A stretch of 55,280 nucleotides of DNA from a virus. Lineage: Duplodnaviria; Caudoviricetes. Below are positions 793 to 52,786 of the stretch, one piece after another. Numbering within the stretch: the first letter of the stretch is position 1; every line of letters starts with the position of its first letter. The notes beneath the pieces are model-generated. The model had not been told where the DNA came from, searched no databases, and saw nothing but the letters and a program-made list of their open reading frames with translations. The stretch lies in the IMG/VR virus record IMGVR_UViG_3300029787_005125, positions 1 to 55,280 of that record, one strand, 5' to 3'. The translations under genes were made by a program, and so were the position numbers.

Positions 793-2007
793 TCAGATGT
801 CAAGCTTAATCTTAAATGTGAAGTCACGTTCCGCGGTTTTCTTCACAGGTGTTGCAACTTTAGCTATGCCAATAAGGTTTTTGTCTTCATCATAAATGCC
901 AATCTTTGAGATATATGTCGTCTTCTCAAAAGATCCAGTTGGGTCAACGTAGGAAGAGCTAACCATGTTTTTGATCGGTCTTGTTGTAAGCTCCAAGTAA
1001 GAATGTGAACTTGTGGAGGCGTAGGCATCTGTGCTATATTCTACGTAAGTGGGATTATTAGAATGGTTCAAACGAGCCTTGGGTGCAGTAGCGAACATGG
1101 TAATAGTTTGAGTATATGACGTGCCACTCATCTCTAAAATGTAGGAAGAATTTGGTGCTGTTATAGAATCATATATGGATTGTGCAAAATAAATCCATTT
1201 TGGATTATCAGCTACCCCATCTGTGTAAATATCGTTGCTGGAGTTTAAGCTTTCGGACCCTGTTAGAATCAATATTCCCTCGGAGTACAAAGCAAGACCA
1301 ATGGCGCTACCAGAACTTACACCGTAAGTCGAATACAAAACCCCATCCCTATTGGAATCTTGCGCCCTTCCAATTAGGGTGCCGGTGAAGTAATATTCAA
1401 GGTTTAGTGTTCCTTTTTTGATTTCCGAACCGTAAAAGACTGATGGTATGTTAACTAAGCCTACTTCTGCTGTATCAAAATCTCTTTGGTGTAGTGAGGA
1501 AGAGTAGGCAAAATTTGAATTTATGTAGTTGTAGTGGTTGATTGTTGATTTCAGAGCCCGCAGATGTGACACAAAGCCATCGGTAAGCGAGGTAACGGTT
1601 CCTATTCGGGCTGTGGTCGTGCCGTAGTACTGCTTGCTAATACTAGAGGTGTAAGGATATGGGCTCCCTGTTACAACCTGACCATAATCTGCTGAATTAA
1701 AGGCGGCGTTTGTGGAGGTTCTAAAATCTAGCCTTGTGCCGTTCTTGACTGCGAAGGGGTATATGAGTCCGTTATCGTCAACCTGACCGATGGACCTTCC
1801 CGTAGAAGTTGAAGCCCTATCAACGTTCAACTCATACAGCGATATACTACCACCATCCGTTAAGCGAATGGGGTCTGTAAAAGCACCAGGAATATTCGGT
1901 GTATTGTTATAATATGCGGAACCGGAATAAACTACAAATTTAACGCTTGGATAAGTTTTTAAAGTATTATTGTATACTTCATTTCGTTTAAATTTGTAGT
2001 AAGGCAT
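793..2007 (-). CDS. Virion structural protein, tail-collar/baseplate-associated (paralogue of 2028..3104)
   Basis: C-terminal TYISKIGIYDEDKNLIGIAK...FKIKLDI motif resembling the C-terminal half of phage tail-collar fibre domains; Ser/Thr/Gly-rich; located in the tail module. Confidence 0.65.
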   Translation of the reverse strand: MPYYKFKRNEVYNNTLKTYPSVKFVVYSGSAYYNNTPNIPGAFTDPIRLTDGGSISLYELNVDRASTSTGRSIGQVDDNGLIYPFAVKNGTRLDFRTSTNAAFNSADYGQVVTGSPYPYTSSISKQYYGTTTARIGTVTSLTDGFVSHLRALKSTINHYNYINSNFAYSSSLHQRDFDTAEVGLVNIPSVFYGSEIKKGTLNLEYYFTGTLIGRAQDSNRDGVLYSTYGVSSGSAIGLALYSEGILILTGSESLNSSNDIYTDGVADNPKWIYFAQSIYDSITAPNSSYILEMSGTSYTQTITMFATAPKARLNHSNNPTYVEYSTDAYASTSSHSYLELTTRPIKNMVSSSYVDPTGSFEKTTYISKIGIYDEDKNLIGIAKVATPVKKTAERDFTFKIKLDI

Positions 2008-2027
2008 AACATAACCACATATTCACT

Positions 2028-50273: not shown

Positions 50274-51536
50274 TCAGTCTTCCACGAGACTACTAAACAG
50301 CGCCTCTATTTCGTCATCACTAACCTCATTATCGATAAGTGATGTAATATTTTCTACAAACTGTCCATACATACTATCATTTGTAAAATTCTCTATAATA
50401 TGATTTTTTAAGATCTTGGCTTGATTTTTCCAATGTGTTTCTTTAACTAAGCATTCTTTCAAGGCAGATTTGTAATGCTTTTCTTTGGCATATGCCCACT
50501 TCGAGTCGGCTTGAATAACGCCGTCCCAAACGGCTTCGCTTTGCACTTGTGCAATATCATAATCTACCTTGATAACCTTCGGGACTTGTTTGCCTTTCTT
50601 ATTTGGCTTACAAATAAAGTCCATCTGCCCTGACCAAGTGGTGGTTATCAAAGGCAACCCATGATAAGCAGCCTCAAACAACGGAAGACCATAGCCCTCA
50701 CCATGACCAATATTAATCATTGCCTTCATGGTAGGATGCTCATAGAGCCACGCTAGGTTCCCAGGAGACATTTCACCATGAATTAGGTACACAGAGCACT
50801 TACGGTCTGTGTAAGGCTTTAGGAGGCTTTCTAGACGGCTCTGTGTGTGTTCTCTGTCTATAACTGAATCCGACGCCATGTTGGTCTTCACAACCAGACC
50901 CACATCTGCCTCATCTGAGAAAGTCTCTACAAACCATTTAATAGTGTTATCTAGATTCTTTCTTGGTCCCCACTGAGCTACTGCGAGAAAATTCTTGTTA
51001 GTCTTAAATTCAATATTAACTTGTTCTGGTTCGAATAGCCTGACAGGATAATTGACCGTCTCTACGGGCACATGTAAACCCCAGTCCTTATGGTCATTCC
51101 CATGCTGGTCTTTAACGTCGTATCTTGTTTGCTCAAACACTTTCTTTGAATGATTTGAGACAACGATCACTTTATCAACAGTATCATTGCATTTAGCGAT
51201 CCACTGTGGGGATACTTTTGTTGTTTCAATTCCGGCAGTGTAACCCACATTTACTGGGGCAATCTTTTCAAATTCATTAGGAACCGTGATTTGCAACGAT
51301 ACATCAAACTGACCTCCCTGCTGGGCGTAATTTTGCGTCTTTAAGATATTCTCATGAATAAAACTTGCTTCTTCGTCAATATTTGCAATCTGCCCAGTCT
51401 GTCCCCATGGGATATTTATTATGTATATATCAAACAGGTCAGGTCTGGAGCGGAGTGACCTTAGTGCAAATCTAGATTGTTCGCCATAGCCCGAACGCGA
51501 AAGTAGCGGGCCCTTTACTAATATTCTTTTCAACAT
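50274..51536 (-). CDS. GT4-family glycosyltransferase
   Basis: SRSGYG, TAGIET, VVSNHSK, WGPRKN, GEGYGLPLFEA. Confidence 0.88.
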   Translation of the reverse strand: MLKRILVKGPLLSRSGYGEQSRFALRSLRSRPDLFDIYIINIPWGQTGQIANIDEEASFIHENILKTQNYAQQGGQFDVSLQITVPNEFEKIAPVNVGYTAGIETTKVSPQWIAKCNDTVDKVIVVSNHSKKVFEQTRYDVKDQHGNDHKDWGLHVPVETVNYPVRLFEPEQVNIEFKTNKNFLAVAQWGPRKNLDNTIKWFVETFSDEADVGLVVKTNMASDSVIDREHTQSRLESLLKPYTDRKCSVYLIHGEMSPGNLAWLYEHPTMKAMINIGHGEGYGLPLFEAAYHGLPLITTTWSGQMDFICKPNKKGKQVPKVIKVDYDIAQVQSEAVWDGVIQADSKWAYAKEKHYKSALKECLVKETHWKNQAKILKNHIIENFTNDSMYGQFVENITSLIDNEVSDDEIEALFSSLVED

Positions 51537-52786
51537 TAAAATACCTTTACTTCATATGAGTTATAGCCCTTGCGGTGTTCCCAGGAGCCTTTTTGTTCAT
51601 GTATTGAGGTGAATAAATCATCCCACGTCTGGATAAATTTATCAAACCCAAAAAATTCTTCTGTCCAAGCGCGTCCAGCAAGTCCTAGCTCGGTCCTATC
51701 CTCCGGGGTCATCTCATAAAGTTCTGTTAGAGCATTAATAAAATCATCTTTGTTTAGGCGGTCCTCGTAAATAAACGGAACATGCTGAGATCCAATAATC
51801 GCTTTGGACGAAGGATTTAGTCCGATGCCAAAGAAGTTTTCTCCATCAGTTACCTGATCTTGAAGTCCTCCTGTCATATTGACCAATATTGGAGTTCCAC
51901 AGGATAGTGATTCCAATGTAGAGAGTCCAAACCCTTCGGCATCAGAAATGCTAATAGTGAGGTCTGCCATGTTATATATTCCGGCGAGATCTGGAGCATT
52001 TACCTTCTCTCTTGAGAATAAAACCTCACCGTCGACAAGACCAAGTTCGTGGATAATTGCCTCCAGGTCTTGTCCATTCTGATCTTTTACATCAGTGTGC
52101 ATTATTAAACATGCTTTGTCATGACCGACTTTATCTAGGAACTCTTTAAACCACCAAATTAAGGTACCCGACTGTTTACGTCTTGCGTTTCGACTATTCC
52201 AGAAACAAACGAATTTATCATTTAAATTTTTAGATAATCTCCAGGCTTTTATTTCTTCGGCAGAATGTGGTTTAAACACATCCCCGTCAACAGCATGCGG
52301 AATATAAGACGAATCTACTGTTGGTGCCACTGTTTCTACAATATCGTGCGTTAGCTTAGATATGCAAGCAACGTGGTCATTTGAAAGATAATATTTACGG
52401 TTAAATGTAGGGTATGGGTAGTTGTCCCAAACATGGTAGTAAACCATAGGAACATGTGGTCTGATTTCATTTTCAATAGCCCAAAGCCAATCATAAAATC
52501 TAGGGTCTGTCATAAACCAAAGAATATCTGGCTTTTGCTGGCGAATCATGGCTCGGACCATATCTTGATTTCCATATCCATCAACTGGCCAGATGATCCA
52601 ATCTTCACCCCACTCCTCAGTCTTCTGGGGGTTATGATCCGGGTGCCTAATGGCTCCTCCAAATGAAACAAACTGGTACTTACCAGTTTTAAGCATTCCT
52701 TCAATAATATATTTTGTCTGAGTTCCGACACCACTCGGAGACAGCGGATGATCGCTGATGGTGAAAATCTTAATCTTATCTGACAT
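51536..52786 (-). CDS. GT4-family glycosyltransferase
   Basis: SDHP...SGVG, IPHAVD, RNARRKQ, EGFGLSTLESLSCGTP, TGGLQDQ. Confidence 0.9.
   Translation of the reverse strand: MSDKIKIFTISDHPLSPSGVGTQTKYIIEGMLKTGKYQFVSFGGAIRHPDHNPQKTEEWGEDWIIWPVDGYGNQDMVRAMIRQQKPDILWFMTDPRFYDWLWAIENEIRPHVPMVYYHVWDNYPYPTFNRKYYLSNDHVACISKLTHDIVETVAPTVDSSYIPHAVDGDVFKPHSAEEIKAWRLSKNLNDKFVCFWNSRNARRKQSGTLIWWFKEFLDKVGHDKACLIMHTDVKDQNGQDLEAIIHELGLVDGEVLFSREKVNAPDLAGIYNMADLTISISDAEGFGLSTLESLSCGTPILVNMTGGLQDQVTDGENFFGIGLNPSSKAIIGSQHVPFIYEDRLNKDDFINALTELYEMTPEDRTELGLAGRAWTEEFFGFDKFIQTWDDLFTSIHEQKGSWEHRKGYNSYEVKVF

Follow-up and report, generated by a model that had tools for sequence, protein, structure and literature searches.

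For years, sugar-gene clusters have been described from large marine phages, and their target has never been demonstrated. Glycan islands of this kind are already in the literature, and for the host recognition cluster of the pelagimyophages the guess offered in the cited part of the source is modification of the host O-chain (PMC7029224). In mycobacteriophages, glycans are found at the C-termini of capsid and tail-tube subunits (Freeman et al. 2023, as described in PMC12619734), and in the chlorovirus NY-2A the glycosyltransferase (GT) B736L (3OY2/3OY7), which is 81% identical to A546L of PBCV-1, is presented as an enzyme of unknown acceptor, the NY-2A capsid glycan being without the mannose that B736L seems to bind (both points in the cited part of PMC9614988). 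The present analysis concerns a glycan island of an uncultured marine tailed phage (Caudoviricetes), in the record IMGVR_UViG_3300029787_005125 of IMG/VR; "the window" denotes the whole stretch of 55,280 bases, which is the record itself, the remainder of the phage genome lying outside it. The explanation preferred here, and given about an even chance, is that this locus glycosylates the phage's own outer tail proteins in the cytoplasm. It draws on the gene content of the island, the solubility of its enzymes, a layout of conserved head and variable cassette, the absence of export genes, and an excess of one short motif in the tail proteins.

Organisation of the island and its relatives

Every tiling open reading frame (ORF) of at least 80 aa in the window lies on the minus strand, intergenic gaps reach 41 bases at most, and 32603..52786 is occupied by 20 sugar-related minus-strand ORFs. 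In the direction of transcription, genes for PhoH, a 95-aa protein, a 216-aa protein and a PD-(D/E)XK nuclease (55257..52795) are followed by the 20 sugar ORFs (52786..32603), by two small ORFs, a Zn-ribbon protein, a 122-aa protein and a gp55-like late sigma factor, and then by the baseplate/tail genes, in the order M23 peptidase, gp25, gp6-like wedge, 508-aa protein, 2784-aa protein and five more proteins down to position 793. The first-pass annotation of this DNA, made from its letters alone, had described 19 island genes in one contiguous same-strand block; the block holds, and the number becomes 20 ORFs. Its estimate of about seven GT genes plus two putative ones agrees with the seven ORFs now assigned by Pfam or PHROG (51536..52786, 50274..51536, 48656..50272, 47775..48677, 45047..45949, 44106..45050 and 35385..36215) and the two that are putative only (36212..37033 and 40886..41713; 273 and 275 aa; phrog_13607), and the nucleotide-sugar and tailoring genes that it listed are recovered as Gmd, an Fcl-like protein, a third SDR-family protein, DegT, Gfo/Idh/MocA, NTP-transferase/HAD, four methyltransferases and a radical SAM/SPASM enzyme. 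No terminator had been seen between island and tail genes, and all nine minus-strand terminator-like sites in 28000..40000 indeed lie inside ORFs, none of them at the island/sigma boundary; an apparent 380-base gap (32222..32603) contains two further short reading frames, 54 and 65 aa in length, that have ribosome-binding sites. With these small corrections, the original observation on gene content, strand and coordinates is confirmed, and the location beside the gp55-like sigma factor and the baseplate/tail genes, which it also included, holds in this window and in marine relatives and fails in the cultured relatives.

Relatives in IMG/VR comprise 124 stretches with the gp6-like protein, at least 597 with the sigma factor and 555 with the first GT of the island (the lead GT4, at 55-89% identity). 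The window proteins were compared with 80 loci anchored on the lead GT4, where some misses may be contig ends. Among these loci, PhoH is carried by 67, the 95-aa protein by 71, the 216-aa protein and the nuclease by 72 each, the lead GT4 by all 80 and the second GT4-like gene by 77; the 538-aa GT2 protein that comes next is found in 21, at low identity, and every other island gene in 0-15. When the loci are instead anchored on the sigma factor (80/80), the 122-aa protein is present in 73/80, the Zn-ribbon protein in 69/80, and the SDR, Gmd-like and Fcl-like genes in 38-46/80, mostly at 32-47% identity. The island is a conserved two-enzyme head plus a swappable cassette. A Pfam scan of 77 cassette proteins from eight relatives (of 129 picked from 13) left 23 of the 77 without a family and identified unrelated pathways, with GT10, an RmlC-type isomerase, a split transketolase, NeuB twice with a CMP-sugar synthetase, PfkB plus a cytidylyltransferase-like protein, a sulfotransferase, a C-methyltransferase and others. 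One related phage carries a RuBisCO large-chain-like protein in its glycan cassette (PF00016, 1.9e-33; L221:19566-20756). In 35001..50000 of the window, the G+C of the cassette is 0.34-0.39 against mostly 0.40-0.45 in the tail module, which fits an acquisition of the cassette from elsewhere.

Searched by megablast, neither the island nor the tail region had a match among 50,697 phage records, and only 11 phage records matched the lead GT4. The nearest cultured relatives are Flavobacterium phage immuto and Microcystis phage Mel-JY01 (gp6-like protein about 30%, lead GT4 32-33% identical), Rhodothermus phage RM378 giving a weaker match than these two; the host of immuto_2-6A is Flavobacterium sp. 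LMO8 and that of Mel-JY01 is Microcystis elabens. Both phages have the same order of nuclease, lead GT, second GT and variable sugar genes, at 26-32% identity, and the persistence of the nuclease-GT-GT order across host phyla fits an acceptor that travels with the phage. An alignment of the lead GT4 against 185,579 species genomes, made with two peptide patterns that distant cellular relatives could escape, returned 11 loci, all of them contigs of metagenome-assembled genomes with phage gene order, and no cellular homologue. These 11 loci (L248-L258) had been binned as Pelagibacter (2), Woesearchaeota (3), Flavobacteriales, WOR-3, Maricaulis, Neomarinimicrobiota and others, and are probably phage DNA that was mis-binned; one match lies inside a 2.85-Mb WOR-3 "chromosome" and ends at residue 309. 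In four seawater DNA runs, a near-identical cassette has depth in 28-30 of 30 bins, and over 51928..53900, which covers the nuclease and the beginning of the lead GT4, the summed depth exceeds that of the cassette severalfold. Many co-occurring relatives with a common head and different cassettes would fit this pattern; ranking genes by depth is unsafe, the joints that skip parts of the cassette have sides of only 21-22 letters, and neither depth observation is used here as evidence.

The two conserved glycosyltransferases

The head is formed by the following genes:

51536..52786 (-): lead GT4, 416 aa; Glycos_transf_1, 6.1e-12; GT4-conflict, 33 bits (cut-off 26)
50274..51536 (-): second GT4-like enzyme, 420 aa; predicted partner of the lead GT4

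An E-x7-E motif in the C-terminal domain is typical of GT4-type retaining GTs. It is invariant in the lead GT4 (E284..E292, 31 sequences) and in the second GT4 (E280..E288, 39 sequences). AlphaFold models of the two proteins reach a predicted local distance difference test (pLDDT) of 88 and 94.4, respectively, and the top 50 fold matches of both are all GT-B enzymes. For both of them the best solved relative is B736L (3OY2), found for the lead GT4 by profile at 1.1e-14 over the full length and by fold at 5.6e-21 (TM-score 0.73), and for the second GT4 at 4.6e-7 by profile and 1.3e-16 by fold (TM-score 0.65). The next fold matches are MshA, BshA and sucrose-phosphate synthase for the lead GT4, all with small-molecule acceptors, and SdgB, GtfA and TarM for the second GT4, with chains of the GtfA/SdgB type at ranks 5-34. 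In relatives, the second GT4 may be longer: 647-713 aa in 21 of the 76 relatives listed (L163, L176, L189, L164, L170, L168 and L197 among them), with an extra C-terminal domain of about 230-290 aa, where the window has the separate 538-aa protein instead.

The two head enzymes are inferred from structure prediction to form a heterodimer. Their predicted complex scores 0.89 in three runs, against 0.00 for the best of three controls; the mark applied is reached by 116 of 157 solved complexes and by two of 215 mismatched pairs, counts that hold roughly here, as own alignments were used. The runs share at least 96% of contacts, with a partner pLDDT of at least 90, and in the model the C-terminal eight residues of the lead GT4, disordered in the monomer model, form a strand that pairs with residues 248-256 of the second GT4, both docking segments being conserved across the lineage. 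A pair of the GtfA/GtfB type was considered as a template. GtfB is a non-catalytic subunit, and the comparison was rejected as a model for a pair with a non-catalytic partner because of the invariant E-x7-E in both phage proteins, neither of which resembles such a partner.

Candidate acceptors in the tail

The tail had been described from the sequence as rich in Ser/Thr motifs, and its proteins do contain 13-23% Ser+Thr, against 8-13% in the island enzymes. A tripeptide scan of the 14 structural proteins placed TGS (19 versus 4.7 expected) and SGS (19 versus 5.8) at the top among frequent tripeptides, and the combined motif [ST]-G-S is distributed as follows:

793..30704 (-), the baseplate/tail/fibre module with the candidate acceptors (PF01551, PF04965, phrog_219/10646): M23 peptidase, gp25, gp6-like wedge, 508-aa and 2784-aa proteins, and distal proteins of 304-939 aa
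Window, 14 structural proteins: 38 observed versus about 10.4 expected, 3.6-fold
Window, other 30 ORFs: 0 observed versus about 3 expected
Immuto tail proteins (GT pair present): 61 versus 13.6, 4.5-fold
Mel-JY01 tail proteins (GT pair present): 45 versus 6.5, 6.9-fold
T4 long tail fibres (control): 6 versus 4.6, 1.3-fold
HTVC008M baseplate and fibre proteins (control): 32 versus 16.1, 2.0-fold

Most of the window's motifs fall in four proteins, with counts of 18 versus 3.4 in the 2784-aa protein, 7 versus 1.0 in the 508-aa protein (18897..20423), 5 versus 0.9 in the 404-aa protein and 3 versus 0.6 in the 358-aa protein. Homologues of the 508-aa protein (47 sequences) conserve the motif positions at 0.97/0.84/0.88; the figures for their other Ser/Thr and other Gly positions are 0.76 and 0.75. 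Excess and conservation together are consistent with a sequon, and fall short of proof.

Export machinery and DNA modification

The absence of any obvious transmembrane segment from the island was borne out, the highest 19-residue Kyte-Doolittle mean being 1.69 (the transaldolase-fold protein) and the others at most 1.47. GTs without membrane segments are normal in host O-antigen pathways, so that only the absence of initiating and export proteins discriminates between targets. In agreement with the first-pass annotation, which had found no Wzx, Wzy, WaaL, PglB or initiating transferase, none of the 44 window ORFs matches the Wzx, Wzy/WaaL, STT3, Bac_transf or WecA families. Flippase or ligase genes elsewhere in the genome, which that annotation had named as pointing to the host surface, were searched for in five relatives in lieu of the phage's own genome. 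All five carry the lead GT4, with CheckV completeness of 100, 100, 100, 91 and 82%, and none has a match to Bac_transf (PF02397), Wzx (PF01943), Wzy_C (PF04932), the WecA type (PF00953), STT3 (PF02516) or the GT-C family PMT_2 (PF13231), in searches that each matched 4-13 of 14 control genomes and did not include GtrA and GtrB models by name. Likewise, among 1,291 ORFs (100 aa or longer) in the cassette DNA of 137 related loci, 36 have one or two hydrophobic segments and none has more; the count takes ATG starts, includes nested ORFs and treats loci on the same contig separately. A "Polysacc_synt_C" match in a relative (L214:15302-15706, 3.9e-10) was rejected as a flippase fragment: the protein, of 135 aa, is hydrophilic, has no hydrophobic window and resembles a small soluble sugar-modifying enzyme, and the Pfam label can mislead searches for flippases.

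The other finding named in advance, a base hydroxymethylase elsewhere in the genome, was looked for as a ThyA-family gene, which is present in 10 of 14 control genomes and absent from the five relatives and from the window. In addition, the DNA of immuto_2-6A, analysed by liquid chromatography with ultraviolet and tandem mass-spectrometric detection (LC-UV-MS/MS), is reported in the cited part of the source to consist of dA, dC, dT and the new nucleoside fdPreQ1, which replaces dG, with no sugar-bearing nucleoside (PMC10516641). The lack of a ThyA-type gene in the relatives and the immuto nucleoside data weaken DNA as the target. A search with PF01702 (TGT/DpdA) found nothing in the five relatives; a divergent DpdA3 may escape this model, and the result is not used as evidence.

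Weighing the acceptor

Remodelling of the host surface would have the soluble enzymes act on the host's undecaprenyl-phosphate-linked intermediates at the inner face of the membrane, the initiating transferase, flippase, polymerase and ligase of the host then displaying an altered O-antigen or capsule that blocks superinfection or re-adsorption of progeny. The pelagimyophage islands have been read in this way, as far as the cited part of that report goes (PMC7029224), many of the island genes match enzyme families of lipopolysaccharide (LPS), capsule and O-antigen synthesis, and the solubility of the island fits it, O-antigen GTs after the initiating one normally being without membrane segments. 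Even so, this explanation, although a serious rival, is judged less likely than not: both head enzymes are kept in phages of different host phyla with unrelated envelopes, no relative searched carries an export or initiating gene despite free swapping of cassettes, and host flippases and polymerases would have to accept glycans as unrelated as those of the fucose, nonulosonic-acid, heptose-type and sulfated cassettes. Glycosylation of modified bases, as in T-even and other phages with glycan-modified DNA, has in its favour the existence of phage GTs that decorate DNA with varied glycans (Pyle et al. 2024, cited in PMC12619734) and the nuclease gene next to the head; given the missing hydroxymethylase in the relatives and the nucleosides of immuto, which has the same GT pair (PMC10516641), it must be considered extremely improbable. 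A different cytoplasmic acceptor, whether a small molecule, a non-structural phage protein, a host protein (a defence or translation factor, for example) or a free oligosaccharide, would agree with the small soluble acceptors used by the folds that come after B736L in the lead-GT4 search, with the passing of the Pfam cut-off for "GT4 in conflict systems" by the same enzyme, and with the constant linkage of the head to the nuclease and not to structural genes. Seven to nine transferases with tailoring enzymes, swapped from strain to strain, nevertheless resemble a diversifying surface glycan and not a fixed metabolite, and the motif excess on the tail proteins would be left unexplained, which makes such an acceptor rather improbable.

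Glycosylation of the tail proteins themselves has several points to answer. In immuto and Mel-JY01 the island lies about 22 and about 73 kb, respectively, from the baseplate genes, so only in the marine clade is the island linked to the tail module, and the stable linkage is that to the nuclease. The island stands upstream of the late-sigma gene, and its position is therefore no argument for late co-expression; the T4 late-promoter motif occurs twice in the scan against 4.9 expected, with no enrichment at the island, and there are 33 sigma-70-like sites where 33.9 would be expected. The excess of the motif might reflect a structural turn or another feature inherited with fibre folds, the three positive phages are related to each other, and of the two controls, one is itself 2.0-fold enriched. 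GT-B fold matches are generic and those after B736L act on small molecules, and the B736L match is a resemblance and not a functional assignment, because the acceptor of B736L is itself given as unknown (PMC9614988, cited part). Export genes outside the window can be checked through relatives only, and a literature search returned no report of glycosylated virions in this lineage. Of the earlier proposal that a soluble island builds a glycan on virion proteins, the soluble, export-less enzymes, the weakened DNA target and the tail motif stand, and the conserved adjacency to the tail does not.

Genes of the cassette and of the flanks

The cassette comprises the following features:

48656..50272 (-): 538-aa protein, GT2 in the C-terminal half (PF00535, 9.3e-19, residues 299-431)
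47775..48677 (-): GT1/GT4-type GT, 300 aa (PF00534, 3.9e-9)
46959..47771 (-): short DegT-type sugar aminotransferase, 270 aa (PF01041, 3.5e-74, profile 29-235 of 360)
45962..46996 (-): Gfo/Idh/MocA oxidoreductase, sugar 3-dehydrogenase type (PF01408, 2.5e-26)
45047..45949 (-): GT15-like protein, Kre2/Mnt1-type alpha-1,2-mannosyltransferase family (PF01793, 2.2e-18; 67 bits, cut-off 25)
44106..45050 (-): Glyco_trans_1_2 GT, 314 aa (PF13524, 4.1e-16)
43240..44109 (-): radical SAM/SPASM enzyme (PF04055, 4.6e-10; PF13186, 5.1e-10), 83%-identical copy in L158
41719..43233 (-): two methyltransferases, class I and FkbM-type (PF13847, 1.5e-4; PF05050, 9.1e-11)
40886..41713 (-): 275-aa putative transferase (phrog_13607, 9.4e-8; no Pfam family)
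38798..40870 (-): 690-aa fusion of NTP-transferase, HAD phosphatase and a weak kinase-like part (PF12804, 8.6e-10; PF13344, 6e-6)
38100..38786 (-): transaldolase/fructose-6-phosphate aldolase family (PF00923, 2.4e-23; TIGR02134, 189 bits, below cut-off)
37003..38094 (-): NanM-like sugar O-methyltransferase (TIGR04371, 4.6e-29; 101.8 bits, cut-off 44)
36212..37033 (-): 273-aa putative transferase (phrog_13607, 4.3e-7), likely start at residue 10
35385..36215 (-): GT (phrog_2644, 3.9e-10; GT11 at E 0.34 only)
32603..35381 (-): GDP-L-fucose module, with Fcl-like protein (34452..35381), Gmd (33468..34451) and third SDR epimerase/reductase (32603..33475)

A relaxed Pfam scan of the proteins without a family gave sub-threshold hints only, and no family for the N-terminal half of the 538-aa protein. 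The 270-aa DegT protein is without the C-terminal third of the family profile, and a copy of equal length, 76.5% identical, is found at L171:14572-15381; since the same-length form recurs in another phage contig, the gene looks like a maintained variant and not a broken one. In immuto, a short DegT copy of 214 aa (gp172) adjoins a full-length one. The neighbouring Gfo/Idh/MocA protein scores 9.1e-24 against the UDP-GlcNAc 3-dehydrogenase model, below its cut-off. GT15 is a mainly fungal family; the GT15-like protein of the window has no membrane anchor (hydropathy maximum 1.17), and three related contigs carry copies that are 45-57% identical (L182:10868-11755, for example). The kinase-like part of the 690-aa fusion matches APH/Pkinase at about 0.02-0.03, below cut-off. 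From its domains, the fusion is probably a sugar-activating enzyme, and it may, together with the aldolase, make and activate an unusual sugar phosphate; neither protein has a homologue in 240 IMG/VR loci. The nearest Atlas clusters of the 273-aa protein are viral, with DUF7796 on 11-13% of members. In the fucose module, Gmd reaches 441.7 bits with TIGR01472, above the curated cut-off of 415, and the GDP-L-fucose synthase model gives 227 bits, below cut-off; PF01370 matches in the module at 1.1e-42. The GT at 35385..36215 is possibly a fucosyltransferase, its weak GT11 signal beside Gmd and Fcl being a hint of this.

On either side of the island lie the conserved genes:

54430..55257 (-): PhoH-like ATPase (PF02562, 1.1e-54), opening the conserved block upstream of the island
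53564..54214 (-): 216-aa conserved protein, weakly metallopeptidase-like at the C-terminus (Peptidase_M90 at 0.0026, below cut-off)
52795..53577 (-): PD-(D/E)XK nuclease (PF12705, 2.3e-13), directly upstream of both conserved GTs
30984..32587 (-): post-island block of two small ORFs, Zn-ribbon protein, 122-aa protein and gp55-like late sigma factor (phrog_234, 8e-8)

The 122-aa protein (31606..31974, minus strand), encoded between the Zn-ribbon and late-sigma genes, has an N-terminal hydrophobic segment with a mean of 2.28, and its ORF overlaps that of the sigma factor by 65 bases.

A proposed pathway and its implications

We infer the acceptor, the order of steps and the composition of the glycan as follows. 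The GT4 pair encoded behind the nuclease gene would, as a heterodimer, lay the first sugars on a phage-encoded acceptor, most likely the serines in [ST]-G-S of outer baseplate, tail and fibre proteins. The cassette would supply GDP-L-fucose through Gmd and Fcl, an amino sugar through the short DegT protein and the Gfo/Idh/MocA dehydrogenase, and a further activated sugar through the NTP-transferase/HAD/kinase fusion, with the aldolase perhaps feeding this step. The chain would be extended by five more GTs and tailored by four methyltransferases and the radical SAM enzyme, the outcome being a glycan coat of its own for each strain. That the same holds across a large aquatic clade (more than 550 IMG/VR stretches plus the Flavobacterium and Microcystis phages), with a B736L-like heterodimer starting O-glycosylation at [ST]-G-S and a swapped cassette building a strain-specific glycan, is a tentative extension whose chances are put somewhat short of even.

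If this is true, the strains would in effect be phage serotypes, phages infecting Gram-negative hosts would have in this locus their first sequon-directed protein glycosylation system, and the long-debated "LPS gene clusters" of marine phages would move from host remodelling to virion coating. Islands that coat the virion would also call for a rethinking of phage host range, decay, grazing and aggregation at sea, and of the label "auxiliary metabolic genes". What the present window adds is a cassette version rich in fucose, amino-sugar and methyl functions and a predicted, testable GT4 heterodimer held by a conserved C-terminal strand, and the published measurement on immuto DNA argues against the rival in which DNA is the target.

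Comparison with known systems

The locus differs from O-antigen conversion of the Wzx/Wzy or Gtr type in having no such membrane or initiating gene in the window or in the five relatives searched, and from T-even DNA glucosylation in having no ThyA-family hydroxymethylase in the same set. Like the retaining GTs of CAZy family GT4, the head enzymes are predicted to have the GT-B fold of two Rossmann-like domains, with E-x7-E. Serine-rich adhesins of Gram-positive bacteria are glycosylated by the O-GlcNAc transferases GtfA/GtfB and SdgA/SdgB (5E9T, 4PQG, 7VFL). These GT4-type enzymes act on serines of repeat proteins and do so in the cytoplasm, as proposed here, and GtfA works in complex with a second GT-B protein; in the phage the complex is predicted only (0.89 versus 0.00), both proteins keep E-x7-E, and the TM-scores are only 0.45-0.52.

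Mycobacteriophage O-glycosylation likewise relies on phage-encoded soluble GTs, which there modify the phage's own structural proteins (PMC12619734, cited part); the capsid and tail-tube genes of the present phage lie outside the window, whose candidate sites are [ST]-G-S motifs in the interior of baseplate and fibre proteins, and far more enzymes are encoded here. Chloroviruses also encode soluble cytoplasmic GTs, and it is their B736L that is the best solved relative of both head GT4s, although they are eukaryotic viruses and B736L and the head GT4s are only 15-19% identical.

The pelagimyophage islands share with the present one a block of GT and sugar-nucleotide genes among or beside tail genes, with a content that varies between relatives and, in the cited part of the report, a target that is not demonstrated (PMC7029224). 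HTVC008M is not a close relative of this phage, and the nuclease-GT4-GT4 head is unmatched in HTVC008M or in cyanophages. The features of a hypervariable island are found here, with 67-80 of the 80 loci carrying the flank genes, 0-21 carrying the cassette genes, and eight relatives showing different pathways; the location beside tail genes is true of this phage and its marine relatives and false in immuto and Mel-JY01. These two phages have shorter cassettes and islands away from the baseplate genes, and share with the window the order of the head and the [ST]-G-S excess on tail proteins; being cultured, they put the main question within reach of the bench.

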